Part shown: in pieces, positions 26,234 to 34,843 of the stretch
Layout: the number at the start of each line of letters is the position of its first letter
How positions within the stretch are numbered: the stretch's first letter is position 1
Assembly (NCBI RefSeq): GCF_988243305.1
Contig: NZ_OZ547136.1
Length of the DNA: 64,000 bases
Strand: one strand, 5' to 3'
Position numbers and translations under genes: made by a program
The notes under the pieces: model-generated
What the model saw: only the letters and a program-made list of their open reading frames with translations
The model's database searches: none
What the model was told of the DNA's origin: nothing

Positions 26234-27154
26234 ATGCGTTTCCGCCAGTTGTTACCGCTTTTTGGCGCGCTGTTTGCGTTGTATATCATTTGGGGCTCAA
26301 CCTATTTTGTCATTCGGATTGGCGTGGAAAGCTGGCCTCCGTTAATGATGGCAGGCGTTCGATTCCTGGCAGCCGGTATTTTATTGATGGCATTTTTGCT
26401 ACTGCGCGGACACAAGCTCCCCCCGCTACGTCCGCTGCTCAATGCCGCGCTGATTGGCCTGTTATTGCTGGCTGTCGGTAATGGCATGGTGACGGTTGCC
26501 GAGCATCAAAATGTTCCTTCCGGCATCGCCGCCGTTGTGGTTGCAACCGTGCCCCTCTTTACCCTGTGCTTCAGCCGCCTGTTTGGCATTAAAACGCGCA
26601 AACTGGAATGGGTGGGTATCGCCATTGGGCTTGCCGGAATCATCATGCTCAATAGCGGTGGAAATTTAAGCGGCAATCCGTGGGGCGCGATTCTGATTTT
26701 AATCGGCTCGATTAGCTGGGCGTTTGGCTCGGTTTATGGCTCGCGCATTACCTTACCTGTAGGGATGATGGCGGGTGCGATTGAGATGCTGGCGGCAGGC
26801 GTGGTGTTAATGATCGCGTCGATGATTGCAGGTGAAAAACTGACGGCGCTCCCTTCCCTTTCAGGCTTCCTTGCGGTCGGCTATCTGGCGCTGTTTGGTT
26901 CGATTATCGCCATCAACGCTTATATGTATTTAATCCGTAATGTCAGTCCGGCTCTCGCCACCAGCTACGCCTACGTTAACCCGGTGGTCGCGGTCTTGCT
27001 GGGTACGGGACTGGGCGGAGAGACGCTGTCGAAGATTGAATGGCTGGCGCTCGGCGTAATTGTCTTCGCGGTGGTACTGGTCACGTTGGGAAAATATCTC
27101 TTCCCGGCAAAACCCGTAGTTGCGCCAGTTATTCAGGACGCATCAAGCGAGTAA
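26234..27154 (+). CDS. yedA: EamA/DMT family transporter YedA
   Basis: 306 aa, ten predicted TM helices, divergent from yedI. Confidence 0.85.
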   Translation: MRFRQLLPLFGALFALYIIWGSTYFVIRIGVESWPPLMMAGVRFLAAGILLMAFLLLRGHKLPPLRPLLNAALIGLLLLAVGNGMVTVAEHQNVPSGIAAVVVATVPLFTLCFSRLFGIKTRKLEWVGIAIGLAGIIMLNSGGNLSGNPWGAILILIGSISWAFGSVYGSRITLPVGMMAGAIEMLAAGVVLMIASMIAGEKLTALPSLSGFLAVGYLALFGSIIAINAYMYLIRNVSPALATSYAYVNPVVAVLLGTGLGGETLSKIEWLALGVIVFAVVLVTLGKYLFPAKPVVAPVIQDASSE

Positions 27155-27613
27155 ATGAATCCCCTGCGTGTCGATCTGCGCGCTGGCACCTTCGCCGCAG
27201 ATCCACTCTTCCAGACGCTCGGTAAGCGCTTCATCCGTCAGCTTCTCGCGCCCACGTAATGCACACTCCCAGACAATCAGTACGCGCCAGCCGAGTTCCT
27301 GCAAACGACTGATATCGCGGCGATCGCGTTCAACATTTTTACCTATCTTCTCCAGCCAGAACTCGGTTCGAGTCGCAGGCACTTTAAACAGATAGCAGTG
27401 ATGATGATGCCAGAAGCAGCCATGGGTAAATATCACGCAGCGATATTCATCAACGACAAAATCCGGGCTTCCGGGCAGACTGGCGTCCTGAACGCGAAAC
27501 GCCAGGCCCTGCCCGGTTAACAGACTGGCGAGGCGCTTCTCAATCGCCGTATCACGCGTGGCAATCGCGCGCATATTTTTGCTGCGAGTGGCCTTATCGT
27601 GAACGTCGGCCAT
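27143..27613 (-). CDS. vsr: Very-short-patch repair endonuclease Vsr
   Basis: 156 aa from [28 protein letters not shown]...; 5' end overlaps the dcm 3' end in a different frame, as is characteristic of dcm-vsr. Confidence 0.92.
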
Positions 27614-29012
27614 GTTGTGCCTCTTGCTGACGCAACGCCACCGCCTGTTTGATTTTTGGCTCAAGCAGTTTTGCCACCGCGGCAAAGACCGGCACGACCA
27701 CCGAGTTACCGAACTGGCGATAGGCCTGAGTGTCCGAAACCGGAATGCGGAATTTCGCTTCTCCCGGCGCTTCAAAACCCATTAAGCGCGCGCATTCCCG
27801 AGGCGTTAACCGACGTGGACGATGTTGCTGATTCAGCGGATCGTCAAAGTCTTTCTCACCTTTGGCCATATCCCAGCCGCGATCGATTAAAATTTCCGCG
27901 CCATCTTTGTAATAACGCGCAGACAGCGTACGCGTGACGCTTTGCGGATTGTTCGGATAAACCATTCCATAACCGAAGCCGTTACCGCGCGCCTGATGTT
28001 TTTTCGCATATCGATAGAGGTACTTCCACAGCACCGGCGTCAGGATATATTTCGCCTCGACCATCGGGTCCAACAGCTGCGCCAGCGTCACTCGCTGTGC
28101 AGGGAAACATTCGCTGATATCACGCAGAGTAAAATCGGCTTTCAGATTAAGATCGCGACGAAAACCCACCAGCACGATGCGTTCACGGTGCTGCGGCAGA
28201 AAATGTTTACCATCGATGATTTTCGGATCGTCCGGCCCGTTATCTTCTGCATCAGCCACGTCATAGCCCAGTTCGTCCAGCGTCTGCATGATGATGCGGA
28301 ACGTTTTACCCTGGTCGTGACTTTTCAGGTTTTTGACGTTTTCGAGCACAAACATCGCCGGACGACGCGCGTCGATAATGCGTACCACATCAAAAAACAG
28401 CGTGCCCTGGGTATCGCAGGCAAAACCGTGCGCCCGCCCGAGCGAGTTCTTTTTCGATACGCCAGCCAGCGAAAATGGCTGACAAGGGAAACCGGCCAGT
28501 AAAACATCGTGTTCAGGAATGTGTTGACGAATATGTTCCGCCGCCGCCTCATCACTCACGCCTTCTTTATGGCTGAGGGTGATATCGCGGATATCTTCAT
28601 TAAAATGATGCGTCGCCGGATCGCAATAATGGTTGGCTTTATAAGTGCGTACCGCATGTTTGTTCCATTCGCTGGTAAACACGCATTGTCCGCCAATCGA
28701 TTCAAAACCGCGACGGATGCCGCCAATTCCGGCAAATAGATCGATAAAGCGAAACGCATAATGCGGATGATGTGCCGGTGGTTTGGGTAACAACGTTTGC
28801 AGATGGGCGAACTCTTTCTCACTTAAACGGTGCCATGCCGAGTCATTCGCCAGCGCACGTTTTAAAATTGCCGCGCTCCAGTGATTCTCACCCACACCAT
28901 TAAGCTGCGCCACCAGCGTTTTAACATCATAAATTTGCAGCAGTTTCTCCAGCATTGCCTGTGCGGCATTCCCGGTGCTGTATGAATCGGTTACTGATAT
29001 ATTTTCCTGCAT
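27594..29012 (-). CDS. dcm: DNA-cytosine C5 methyltransferase Dcm
   Basis: 472 aa with C5-MTase motifs FAGIGG and PCQPFS. Confidence 0.93.
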
Positions 29013-29078
29013 AGATTTAACCGGCCATCTGAGATGGCCGACAGGTTAACATAATTACAGCCATTTAGGGCCACGCGC

Positions 29079-29774
29079 TTATCCCGCGGGTGAAAACGCA
29101 TCTATCACCTTGTGATCGACACCTTCATTCTCCCCCGCCAGTTCGGCACTGAGCTTCGCCATAAACTCGACTAAAAAATGCGCGTTGTGCTGCGCCAGCT
29201 GCTTGCCTCTTGCGGTTTGCATGGTTTGCGGTAGCTTCAGCAACTTAGTCTGGAAATGATCCAGCGCGTAGCGTTTATCATCAAGCGGGCGATGCTGTGC
29301 GAACGGATCTTCACCATCAAACAGCGCCACGCCCAATGCCCCTGAAACGGCAAACACGCGCGCCAGGCCAATCGCCCCCAGGGCTTCCAGCCGATCCGCA
29401 TCCTGGACGATTTTAGCTTCCGTTGTTAAGGGGGCGATTTGCGCGCTGAAACTGTGAGCGGCAATGGCATGACAAACGGCCTCGATTTTCTCCGCCGGAA
29501 ATTGCTCGAACTCTTCACGGAGCAGGCGACGCGTCTCTTCTGCCGCCAGGATTGAAGAACGCTGCCTTTGCGGATGATTTTTCGCCAGGCTCACAATATC
29601 GTGAAAATAACAGGCGGTTAAAATCACCAGCATATCGACATCGTCATCTGCCGCCAGCTTCTGTGCCGTAGCCCAGACGCGGCGAAAATGACACACGTCA
29701 TGGGCCGCGTCCTGGTGCTGATGATGGTTTTTCAACCAGTTTTCGAACTGTGCCTGCCAGTGTTGTAAGTCCAT
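29079..29774 (-). CDS. yedJ: HD-domain phosphohydrolase YedJ
   Basis: 231 aa with HD-domain His/Asp motifs. Confidence 0.85.
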
Positions 29775-29829
29775 ACGCGCTCCGTTGCCAAAGAGTCGCC
29801 ACCTTAGCAGTTTTTATTCATAGCGTCTG

Positions 29830-30198
29830 CTACGTGCGGGACGAGGTCGGGTGTACCAGGCAATGCTGCCTAACAATGCCCCGACCAGAGCCATAAATAA
29901 AAATCCGACCAGTGCCCCTAACCACTTTCCCGCGGTAGAGCCTAAATCGCTTTTCAAATCCCGACACCGGGGCATCAGGGATCCGGCTCATCACCCAGAT
30001 GTAACGCGCCATTGCCCAGACGAAATAGCCACACCATGTATAGAAAGCCCACAAAGCCAATTTGCCGCCAGGGCTGCGAGAGAGTCTCTCTTCCATCTTT
30101 GTCGAACCGTATTCCATTTTGAGATAACCCGGAAAATTCAGACATAGTACTATTATGTGATAAAAGTCACATTTTTCCACATTGGATGAGCCAGTCAA
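29830..30198 (-). CDS. yedR: Putative inner-membrane protein YedR (start uncertain; an internal ATG at 30117 is possible)
   Basis: 122-aa ORF with the hydrophobic segment KLALWAFYTWCGYFVWAMARYIWV, in the yedR position between yedJ and the porin. Confidence 0.6.
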   Translation of the reverse strand: MTGSSNVEKCDFYHIIVLCLNFPGYLKMEYGSTKMEERLSRSPGGKLALWAFYTWCGYFVWAMARYIWVMSRIPDAPVSGFEKRFRLYRGKVVRGTGRIFIYGSGRGIVRQHCLVHPTSSRT

Positions 30199-30343
30199 GA
30201 CTCAATCATTTTTTGAACAAATAGATAAATTTTGCGCAACGGCAATAATTACTGGAAAAACAGCAATAAAGATTTATTTATATCCTTGGTAATAGTTTTA
30301 TTAATTCACCCAAACAATATATTAGCACTGAATACAATTATAC

Positions 30344-30434
30344 CTTTTTTGATTTCTGTGTCATGATAACCCCGTTATTAGCCTTTTATCGTCTTGTTTA
30401 TATTTTTTGGGCCGGCATGATGCCGGCTTTTTTT
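30344..30434 (+). ncRNA. rseX: Candidate small RNA, probably RseX; only the 3' end is defined
   Basis: Strong plus-strand intrinsic terminator (gggccggcatgatgccggc plus 7 T, 30409-30434) with no plus-strand protein gene upstream; RseX is recalled to lie between yedR and yedS in K-12; the 5' end is a guess. Confidence 0.4.
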
Positions 30435-30745
30435 ATACCTTCATTAATGTGCGCGTGATCACGCCTGCCGTTTGGCGCAACAATCATTGATACTCCCTAT
30501 CTTTCCATTCAACTCATAACATATTGATATACATTTATAATTTTCATGAATGTTTATATTTAGAATTCATAATTCTGAATTATATTAAATAGATTAGAAA
30601 CATTTTGAAATCTTTTAAATACATTTGTTACATGTAATCCTTAAAATAAAATGAACTTCATAGAATAGTATCCAAATGTGCTTTTTTTTGGATAACGGCA
30701 CTTATTGATATATTCATGAAGATTATAATCACAAGGGAATACATA

Positions 30746-31933
30746 ATGAAAAGAAAAGTTCTGGCAATGCTGGTCCCGGCGTTATTAGTTGCTGGCGCAG
30801 CAAATGCGGCTGAAGTCTATAATAAAGATGGTAATAAACTGGATTTGTACGGAAAAGTAGCGGGCCTGCACTACTTCTCTGATGATGCTGGCAGCGATGG
30901 CGACATGTCATATGCCCGTATCGGTTTCAAAGGTGAAACTCAGATCGCTGACCAATTCACTGGTTATGGTCAGTGGGAATTTAACATTGGCGCAAACGGT
31001 CCTGAAAGCGACAAAGGTAATACCGCAACGCGTCTGGCATTTGCAGGTTTAGGCTTTGGTCAGAATGGTACTTTCGACTATGGTCGTAACTACGGTGTCG
31101 TATATGACATCGAAGCATGGACCGATATGCTGCCAGAATTTGGTGGCGATACCTATGCTGGTGCCGACAACTTCATGAACGGTCGTGCTAATGGTGTTGC
31201 AACCTACCGTAACAATGGCTTCTTTGGTCAGGTCGATGGCCTGAACTTTGCTCTGCAATATCAGGGTAATAATGAAGATGATGGATTATTCGGTCAGGAA
31301 GGTTCTGGTAACGGTAATGGCCGTAAGTTAGCTAAAGAGAACGGCGACGGCTTCGGTATGTCCACTTCCTATGACTTTGACTTTGGTTTAAGTCTGGGCG
31401 CTGCTTACTCTAACTCTGACCGTACCGACAATCAGGTTCACAAAGGTACTCATAACACTCGTTATGGAGATCGCTTCGATGCAACTGCTGGCGGTGAAAC
31501 AGCAGAAGCATGGACCGTTGGTGCTAAATACGACGCTAATAACGTTTACTTAGCAGCTATGTATGCTGAAACCCGTAACATGACTGGTTACGGTGATGCT
31601 GATGCGATCGCTAACAAAACCCAAAACTTTGAAGTTGTTGCTCAGTATCAGTTCGACTTCGGTCTGCGCCCGTCCATCGCTTACCTGCAATCTAAAGGTA
31701 AGGATTTAGGCGGTGTAAATAGTGATAACTTCGACAGCCAGGGCAATCATCATTACACCAACAAAGATCTGGTTAAATATGTTGATATTGGTATGACCTA
31801 CTACTTCAACAAAAACATTTCCACCTACGTTGATTACAAAATCAACCTGCTGGACAACGACGACGACTTCTACAAAGAAAACGGCATCGCTACCGATGAT
31901 ATCGTAGCTGTGGGCTTAGTCTACCAGTTCTAA
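30746..31933 (+). CDS. OmpC/OmpF-family general porin, apparently intact (yedS-like)
   Basis: Signal peptide [21 protein letters not shown], then [16 protein letters not shown] and C-terminal ...VAVGLVYQF, hallmarks of enterobacterial 16-strand porins; the track ORF starts 30 nt upstream. Confidence 0.9.
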
Positions 31934-31977
31934 TCAGCCAACGCGCCGCGGCGTGTTACTGTAAAACTTAACAATAG

Positions 31978-32013
31978 CCTGAGTTCGTCCCTCATCGAAC
32001 TCAGGCTTTTTTA
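31978..32013 (+). terminator. Rho-independent terminator of the porin gene
   Basis: Hairpin cctgagttcg...cgaactcagg followed by CTTTTTTATT. Confidence 0.7.
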
Positions 32014-32525
32014 TTGGCATTTCATCTCCATCTGTGGCACACGCAATTGCCAAAGCATATCGATACAGCACATTACCCCGCCACTCCTGGCTCAATAAAA
32101 TCTACCAGCGTCTCTTCCAGCCAACACCCAAATGCATTTCTTTATGAATTAATCCGCAACAAAACCGCCGTCCATATAGAAATATTTGCAAAAATAGTGC
32201 ATGAAAAAAGCTTTTTCTCTGCCAATCCGGGATATAAATATTCATCAGCACCATAATATTCCACATCACTAAATCTCTCCCCATCGCCCCCAAACCTCTG
32301 ATAATGGTCTAAAATCATTGAGGCCACTTGCGACGACGTTACTCAATAAGGAAAGTTTGGCGTGAATAATATTCAACACCAGTGCAGCATCATCATTACA
32401 TACTTATGCCCGCCAACTACCGCTTTCGATATATTGACTCAATTTTTCAGCCTGGTTAAAAATAGCGACCAGCTCAGTCGCAAATATAGTGACTACCCTA
32501 ACTAAGCAACAATAAGGAATACACT

Positions 32526-33377
32526 ATGACTGTTCAAACAAGTAAAAATCCGCAGGTCGATATTGCTGAAGATAATGCCTTCTTCCCTTCAGAATATTCG
32601 CTTAGCCAATATACCAGTCCTGTCTCTGATCTTGATGGCGTGGACTATCCAAAACCGTATCGCGGTAAACATAAAATTCTGGTGATCGCCGCGGACGAAC
32701 GTTATTTGCCGACCGATAACGGGAAACTGTTCTCGACCGGTAACCATCCGATTGAAACGTTGCTGCCGTTGTATCATCTCCATGCTGCAGGTTTCGAATT
32801 CGAAGTGGCGACCATTTCCGGTCTGATGACCAAGTTTGAATACTGGGCTATGCCGCACAAAGATGAAAAAGTAATGCCATTCTTTGAGCAGCATAAATCG
32901 ATGTTCCGCAATCCGAAGAAACTCGCGGATGTTGTCGCCAGCCTCAACGCTGACAGCGAATATGCAGCAATCTTTGTTCCTGGTGGTCATGGCGCACTTA
33001 TTGGTTTACCAGAAAGCCAGGACGTGGCTGCCGCTTTACAGTGGGCAATAAAAAATGACCGTTTTGTTATCTCCCTTTGCCACGGCCCGGCGGCTTTTCT
33101 GGCGCTTCGCCACGGCGATAACCCACTGAATGGTTATTCCATTTGCGCATTCCCAGACGCCGCAGACAAACAAACGCCAGAGATAGGCTATATGTCGGGT
33201 CATCTCACCTGGTACTTCGGCGAAGAACTGAAGAAAATGGGCATGAACATCATTAATGACGACATCACCGGGCGAGTACATAAGGACCGTAAACTTCTCA
33301 CCAGCGACAGTCCTATCGCAGCGAATGCGTTGGGTAAACTGGCGGCGCAGGAAATGCTGGCCGCTTACGCGGGTTAA
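32526..33377 (+). CDS. hchA: Hsp31 chaperone/glyoxalase III
   Basis: 283 aa MTVQTSKNPQVDIAEDNAFFPSEYSLSQYTSPVSDLDGVDYPKPYRGKHKILVIAADERYLP...; DJ-1/PfpI family with the catalytic Cys in the SLCHGP motif. Confidence 0.92.
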   Translation: MTVQTSKNPQVDIAEDNAFFPSEYSLSQYTSPVSDLDGVDYPKPYRGKHKILVIAADERYLPTDNGKLFSTGNHPIETLLPLYHLHAAGFEFEVATISGLMTKFEYWAMPHKDEKVMPFFEQHKSMFRNPKKLADVVASLNADSEYAAIFVPGGHGALIGLPESQDVAAALQWAIKNDRFVISLCHGPAAFLALRHGDNPLNGYSICAFPDAADKQTPEIGYMSGHLTWYFGEELKKMGMNIINDDITGRVHKDRKLLTSDSPIAANALGKLAAQEMLAAYAG

Positions 33378-33413
33378 TCCCTGTTACGTTTGAATGTAAG
33401 CGCATAATCAATC

Positions 33414-33451
33414 GCAGCCACGTTAATACTCACGACGTGGCTGCGTTTTTT
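33414..33451 (+). terminator. Rho-independent terminator after hchA
   Basis: Hairpin gcagccacg...cgtggctgc followed by a T-run. Confidence 0.65.
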
Positions 33452-33484
33452 CATGGTTAATTTATGGCGTACTGAAGCCCTATG

Positions 33485-34843
33485 TTAATTTCTTTGCGGT
33501 AACGTAATCCGGAACACATTATGCTTATTGAGATAGTGATACGTAGCACTTCCCCCATGCAATTCGGCAATCGCTTTGACTAAAGAAAGACCAAGTCCCT
33601 GACCTACGGAATGACGCGAATTATCTCCCCGCCAAAATCTACGGAAGAGTTTTTCAGGCTCATTAATTTTCGTTCCAGGACTGGCGATATCAATATTAAG
33701 AGAACCGTTGTTATCAAGAAAACTGGTTATCTGAATACGCGATTTTTCTGGCGAATATCGAATGGCGTTAACAATAAGATTCGATAACATTCGTTGCAGT
33801 AAAATTTTATCCGCAAAGATTTGTTGATTGCACTCGACCTTAAAACGAATCTCTTTCTCGTCTGAAAGATATTCAAGATAGTCCAAAAGATTTTCAACTT
33901 CCTTATTGAGAGAAAGCGCATCCAGTTTCACCAAAACATTGTTTTTGTCTGCCCTGGCAAGAAACAGTATATTCTCTGTTAACCGCGAAATATTTTCCAG
34001 CTCTTCAATGTTTCCGGCAATTGTTTTTTGATATTCAGCGATACTTCTGGTTTGACTGAGCGTAACCTGATTCTGACCCAGTAATGCATTAATTGGTGTT
34101 CTAAGTTCATGAGCGAGATCGTCAGCAAACTGACTTAGACGCTCAAAATCTTTGACTAAAGCATGATGCATTTTATTCAACGCCTGCCCAAGAGGTTTTA
34201 GTTCTCTCGGTAATGCGCTAACCTCAACAGGCTCCCGGTTATCGTTATAATTCAGCGCTTCCGTTACACCACTCAACTTTTTGATCTCTCGTAACCCCGT
34301 TCTGATTAACAACGGACTTAATACTGAGCACAGTATAATGGCGACAATGCAAATTATAATGCTATTAATTTTATACTGTTCAAGCATGTTATGTCTGGCT
34401 GAAGCCAATTTAGCCACAGTAACCGTTAATGATGGCGAAACTTCATCAATATTAATTCGTAAAGCATCTATCTCTGTGTCATTAATAATGCTTCTGTAAA
34501 TGCCAGCTGCGCTAATTGTCTCACTAGCAGGTATGTTATTTAACATGCCATCACTGACATTTGTCCGGTTAACAATTTTATTGATGCCATCACCATGAAT
34601 GATCAAGATATCCTGACTAACATCCATCATCCGGTTAAAGTACACAGGTAACGTATCTGGATTTACCCCATCAATTAACAACTGCTTGATCTGCGCTGTC
34701 CGGTTAATGAGTGTTGTATCATCGCGCCATTTCAACTCACTTGCCAGGCCATTATAGAGAGTCCAGACAATTCCAGCGCCAGCAACAGACAGCAGCAATA
34801 TAAAAAGCAAGGTTAAACGGACGGTTATAGATAATCTTTTCAT
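33485..34843 (-). CDS. hprS: Two-component sensor histidine kinase HprS (YedV)
   Basis: 452 aa, two TM segments, H-box LAHELRTP, ATPase G-boxes. Confidence 0.9.
   Translation of the reverse strand: MKRLSITVRLTLLFILLLSVAGAGIVWTLYNGLASELKWRDDTTLINRTAQIKQLLIDGVNPDTLPVYFNRMMDVSQDILIIHGDGINKIVNRTNVSDGMLNNIPASETISAAGIYRSIINDTEIDALRINIDEVSPSLTVTVAKLASARHNMLEQYKINSIIICIVAIILCSVLSPLLIRTGLREIKKLSGVTEALNYNDNREPVEVSALPRELKPLGQALNKMHHALVKDFERLSQFADDLAHELRTPINALLGQNQVTLSQTRSIAEYQKTIAGNIEELENISRLTENILFLARADKNNVLVKLDALSLNKEVENLLDYLEYLSDEKEIRFKVECNQQIFADKILLQRMLSNLIVNAIRYSPEKSRIQITSFLDNNGSLNIDIASPGTKINEPEKLFRRFWRGDNSRHSVGQGLGLSLVKAIAELHGGSATYHYLNKHNVFRITLPQRN

Follow-up and report, generated by a model that had tools for sequence, protein, structure and literature searches.

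An rseX orthologue between drpB and an intact yedS porin gene in Escherichia coli: a minority allele of a known small RNA gene

Background

MicA is a sigma-E-dependent and Hfq-dependent small RNA that represses ompA and pairs with the Shine-Dalgarno region of the ompA mRNA. The E. coli K-12 RNA RseX, 91 nt long and a repressor of OmpA and OmpC (PMC7648144), is likewise Hfq-dependent; its targets are ompA, ompC, fimB and ihfB, it has neither a sigma-E nor an OmpR site, and it is silenced by H-NS, for which a site has been placed at -42 to -32 of the gene (PMC8313858). Its 5' end has been mapped by 5' RACE as that of a primary transcript from a sigma-70 promoter, and none of the conditions tested made the RNA detectable in wild-type K-12; it is de-repressed in hns and hns/stpA mutants (PMC8313858). 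The 3' end of RseX represses fepA in a process that needs the terminator loop and relies upon Hfq as well as RNase E (PMC11979758).

The K-12 record (NC_000913.3) lists the ncRNA rseX (b4603) at 2033649-2033739, with drpB (formerly yedR; b1963, minus strand) on one side and the pseudogene yedS (b4496) on the other, in the order drpB (-), rseX (+), yedS (+), hchA (+). Here we describe the corresponding locus in a stretch of 64,000 nucleotides of contig NZ_OZ547136.1 (the window), in which this order is identical.

Results and discussion

A terminator in the spacer upstream of the porin gene

G+C content is 29% in the spacer that separates drpB from the porin gene (30117-30745), and 200-nt windows across the spacer range from 21 to 38%, versus approximately 53% in the genes to its left. 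The stretch 30399-30439 reads ...tatattttttGGGCCGGCATGATGCCGGCttttttt-atacc and contains gggccggcatgatgccggc at 30409-30427 followed by seven T at 30428-30434, so that the terminator consists of GGGCCGGCAUGAUGCCGGC plus seven U and ends at 30434. A terminator scan likewise reports a plus-strand site (30409-30429) in which 6 of the 9 stem pairs are G-C, the loop measures 3 nt and the tail is rich in T. The porin start codon (30746-30748, beginning the protein MKRKVLAML) lies 312 nt after 30434. The protein genes upstream, namely drpB, yedJ with its HD domain and dcm, which encodes a C-5 methylase, all read from the minus strand; therefore, no plus-strand protein gene feeds the terminator. An earlier note made from the sequence alone had described the site in just these terms, as a plus-strand terminator with seven T ending at 30434 in an AT-rich spacer, approximately 310 nt before the porin start and with no plus-strand protein gene upstream, and each of these points is borne out.

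The hairpin alone is not statistically remarkable: eight terminator-like sites were found in 3.5 kb, versus 3.9 expected from shuffled sequences, and the significance of this one derives instead from the Rfam match described below (E = 3.5e-13). Nor is it a bidirectional terminator, because the minus-strand stem is followed by CCAAAAAA rather than by a U run. A match to STnc430 on the minus strand (30398-30491, 25.8 bits versus a gathering score of 47, E = 0.84) was rejected as a sub-threshold chance match that arises from the same hairpin read on the opposite strand.

Identity and boundaries of the gene

A search of 27000-34000 with all 4227 Rfam families and permissive filters returned a single significant match, that of RF01401 (rseX) to 30345-30434 on the plus strand, with 97.8 bits versus a gathering score of 50; the match spans model positions 1-94 of 94, untruncated and with no non-canonical pairs flagged. 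Colinear DNA alignment with b4603 over 91 columns places the first nucleotide of K-12 rseX at 30345 and the end of the U tail at 30434, giving a length of 90 nt here versus 91 nt in K-12. The gene points away from drpB (yedR) and precedes the porin gene yedS, in the order dcm-yedJ-drpB-rseX-porin-hchA. The features of the locus are as follows.

30333..30338, plus strand: putative -10 hexamer of rseX, TACAAT, read from the sequence and identical in K-12
30345..30434, plus strand: rseX, gene of a small Hfq-dependent regulatory RNA, from the RF01401 match and the colinear alignment with K-12 b4603
30364..30380, plus strand: 5' hairpin UGAUAAC-CCC-GUUAUUA with 7 pairs and a CCC loop, from the MFE and centroid folds and the Rfam structure line
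30374..30394, plus strand: invariant core CGUUAUUAGCCUUUUAUCGUC, identical in 8 of 8 Escherichia and Citrobacter sequences
30381-30394, plus strand: RseX nt 37-50, predicted by windowed duplexes to pair with the ompA translation initiation region
30409..30434, plus strand: Rho-independent terminator, GGGCCGGC-AUGAU-GCCGGC(UU) plus a U7 tail, from the terminator scan and the fold

The earlier note had proposed that the terminator probably belongs to RseX, which K-12 encodes between yedR and yedS, and had suggested an Rfam covariance search and an alignment with K-12 rseX as checks; the end-to-end match, the K-12 annotation and the colinear alignment all agree with that proposal. We conclude, with a probability of approximately 0.95, that 30345-30434 is the E. 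coli rseX orthologue, a free-standing gene of approximately 90 nt for an Hfq-dependent small RNA that represses mRNAs of outer-membrane proteins. Its identity, boundaries, structure, gene order and conservation are established by the present analysis. The feature is thus an already known small RNA gene in a natural allelic form, and an ordinary orthologue.

Structure of the RNA and differences from K-12

In the predicted fold, U/A-rich single-stranded RNA separates the 5' hairpin from the terminator, as in the architecture of the Rfam consensus; the fold of the whole RNA only modestly beats those of shuffled sequences (z = -1.92). RseX of K-12 (RF01401) agrees with it in locus and length, and is likewise built of a 5' hairpin, a U/A-rich core and a Rho-independent terminator. 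The G+C-rich 9-pair stem with its U7 tail is a 3' module typical of Hfq-dependent small RNAs; Hfq binding by this RNA is putative.

The two alleles differ by eight substitutions and one indel over the 91 alignment columns, and the BLAST identity of the gene to K-12 derivatives is 92.3%. Four substitutions lie at nt 6-9 (UGAU in the window, AUUA in K-12) and four at nt 24-27 in the loop and upper stem of hairpin 1 (AACC in the window, GCUU in K-12), where they lengthen the stem from approximately 5 pairs in K-12 to 7 in the window; the U tail has seven residues here and eight in K-12. In contrast, the two alleles share nt 28-83 without change, a stretch that takes in the single-stranded core (nt 28-64) and the terminator stem-loop. 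The loop sequence of the window (AACCCC) is nearer to those of other Escherichia species (AACCGC, AACUCC and AGCCCC) than to that of K-12 (GCUUCC); because of this resemblance, judged from a comparison of sequences, K-12 may be the strain that carries the derived hairpin-1 loop.

A 31-codon open reading frame overlapping the RNA

A hydrophobic open reading frame of 31 codons plus stop (30363-30458), with an ATG start and the product MITPLLAFYRLVYIFWAGMMPAFFIPSLMCA, overlaps the gene. The earlier note had considered such a frame probably fortuitous, which agrees with our reading, although it had extended the frame to 30461 and counted 32 codons. If the region encoded a small hydrophobic protein, the hairpin would be incidental, and the presence of an ATG-initiated frame is what this explanation has in its favour. 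However, the ATG is preceded by TTTCTGTGTC, with no Shine-Dalgarno sequence before it, and in Escherichia homologues the same frame yields products of 18, 31, 39 or 42 amino acids with unrelated C-termini, because T runs that differ in length break the frame. Citrobacter amalonaticus has ATT in place of the start codon. The N-terminal residues that the homologues have in common simply mirror the conserved RNA core, and the ATG itself lies inside the conserved GUGUCAUGAU. That the region is protein-coding is therefore scarcely credible.

Distribution and conservation

A query with the 90-nt gene recovered rseX from 4876 of the 5426 complete E. coli genomes, leaving approximately 10% without the sequence. 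The allele of the window, taken as at least 99% identity, is a minority form present in approximately 218 complete E. coli genomes (approximately 4%). For the wider spacer of 661 nt, identity reaches 99% or more in just 49 genomes, the best match being strain JE86-ST05 at 99.8%. Two of the rseX-matching places in complete E. coli genomes sit on plasmids. Strain WR3-3 (NZ_AP041134.1) shows an interrupted match to the drpB-yedS spacer: it falls into two parts, and the annotation beneath names an IS1 family transposase, a sign that IS1 has inserted into the rseX/yedS spacer.

When one genome of each species was scanned for the pattern, six loci emerged, in E. albertii, E. whittamii, two further Escherichia species, E. 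coli E69 and C. amalonaticus, all six of which score above the Rfam threshold (70.9-95.2 bits). Gene order was checked in two of them, E. albertii and C. amalonaticus, and both retain yedJ-drpB-rseX-porin. An alignment of eight sequences shows little or no variation in CUGUGUCAU, CGUUAUUAGCCUUUUAUCGUC and the terminator, the variable parts being the flanks and the loop of hairpin 1; among the Escherichia sequences CCGGCATGATGCCGG does not vary. The 3' arm of the 5' hairpin is invariant and its 5' arm variable, with no clear compensatory changes in this hairpin among the eight homologues.

Conservation of the 5' part could in principle have another cause than RseX function, namely a minus-strand sigma-70 promoter that drives divergent transcription toward drpB. 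A consensus scan does find a minus-strand match (ATGACA, 16 nt, TATAAT; 30364..30337) that agrees with the consensus at 11 of 12 positions, overlaps the 5' end and the -10 of rseX and points toward drpB, and both of its hexamers are conserved in K-12, E. whittamii and two further Escherichia species. Against this stand the frequency of 11/12 matches in dinucleotide shuffles of the 29%-GC spacer (7.8%), the loss of the minus-strand -10 in C. amalonaticus and the conservation of core and terminator, which such a promoter leaves unexplained. We regard this explanation as very improbable. As a candidate drpB promoter the match was also rejected, the mapped drpB promoter being elsewhere and the match statistically not unusual.

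A different doubt is whether this true rseX homologue is inert, a permanently silenced relic that has been kept because it is linked to the yedS porin locus. In wild-type K-12 native RseX escapes detection and is seen only without H-NS (PMC8313858), the -35 of its promoter is weak, and neighbouring genes have decayed in some strains, yedS being a pseudogene in K-12 and drpB frameshifted here. However, the core and terminator of rseX do not vary among Escherichia species and persist for the most part in Citrobacter, whereas the flanking spacer is heavily diverged; the contrast between an invariant RNA and diverged flanks argues for purifying selection on the RNA. Retention of the gene in 90% of complete E. 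coli genomes also speaks against a relic, which on these comparative grounds is disfavoured and, in our estimate, quite unlikely.

The finding matters little beyond correct annotation. In the PGAP records of 30 of 30 sampled genomes no feature is annotated under the rseX match, and only the curated NC_000913.3 names the gene; a lone terminator at this site will therefore keep looking unexplained to naive scans. The series of alleles, with variable nt 6-9 and hairpin-1 loop around an invariant core and terminator, constitutes a natural mutagenesis set for working out which target each part of RseX recognises.

Promoter and upstream DNA

Homology with the 5' end of the K-12 RNA leads us to infer a transcription start at 30345, and the putative -10 hexamer TACAAT is 6 nt upstream of it. 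A weak -35 is common to both strains. That of the window is CAAACA, which matches 3 of 6 positions and is set off by a 16-nt spacer, and the -35 region (CAAACA/CCAAAC) is poorer here than in K-12. The consensus promoter scan did not report an rseX promoter, because this -35 falls below the cut-off of the scan. The stretch 30-100 nt upstream of rseX (30246-30315) is far more diverged from K-12 than rseX itself, and the diverged upstream stretch takes in the -35 and the region of the H-NS and Fis sites proposed for K-12. Because the -35 and the upstream DNA have diverged in this way, the regulation of rseX may differ between the alleles.

Predicted targets and proposed mechanism

For this strain, transcription of the gene, binding of Hfq and repression of targets are what we infer from the literature on K-12. 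By analogy, rseX would be transcribed from its own weak sigma-70 promoter (-10 TACAAT), and H-NS and StpA would keep it transcriptionally silent under laboratory conditions. Once expressed, RseX is expected to use its conserved core to base-pair with the mRNAs of ompA and ompC, and also of fimB and ihfB, at their translation initiation regions, so that translation would be blocked and the mRNAs would decay. The terminator loop would contribute additionally to repression of fepA, a function that the allele of the window should retain because its terminator stem-loop is identical to that of K-12.

Whole-length RNAduplex predictions of RseX with the ompA, ompC and yedS leaders were set aside, being sprawling, bulged and no better than those of shuffled sequences, and windowed duplexes were used in their place. 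These are crude, with no accessibility term and only 40 shuffles. On that crude scale, nt 37-50 of RseX are predicted to pair with positions -30 to -7 of ompA at -18.0 kcal/mol in both alleles, a value equalled by 3 of 40 shuffles for the allele of the window and 0 of 40 for that of K-12. The predicted site on ompA falls within the region of ompA that MicA pairs with; MicA differs from RseX in its unrelated sequence and locus and in its sigma-E promoter.

For ompC, the same crude method gives -19.7 kcal/mol for the allele of the window (1 of 40 shuffles as good) and -17.1 kcal/mol for the K-12 allele (3 of 40). The better duplex is predicted to use the polymorphic AACCC against GGGUU of the ompC Shine-Dalgarno region. 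This difference between the alleles is a lead only. It bears on a more far-reaching reading, in which the minority allele retunes the choice of targets and a small RNA that controls porins varies naturally between alleles in its specificity or its regulation. Such a reading draws on the AACC loop, the improved predicted ompC duplex, the diverged DNA upstream of the promoter and the adjoining intact yedS; it is tentative and we consider it unlikely. The mRNA of the adjacent yedS was tried as a target and rejected, since the best duplex at its initiation region reaches -9.7 kcal/mol and 37 of 40 shuffles equal or better it.

Neighbouring genes

The yedS porin gene (30746-31933, plus strand) is an intact open reading frame of 395 codons that encodes an OmpC paralogue (Pfam Porin_1, 472.9 bits), whereas in K-12 a frameshift and an internal stop make yedS a pseudogene. 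The cell-division gene drpB (yedR; 29814-30116, minus strand) has a 1-nt insertion relative to K-12, with AAAA on its coding strand here versus AAA in K-12, that creates a frameshift at 29941-29944; its 100-amino-acid protein is therefore split across two frames. PGAP also flags drpB as frameshifted in the near-identical strain JE86-ST05. A strong terminator follows yedS at 31976-32007.
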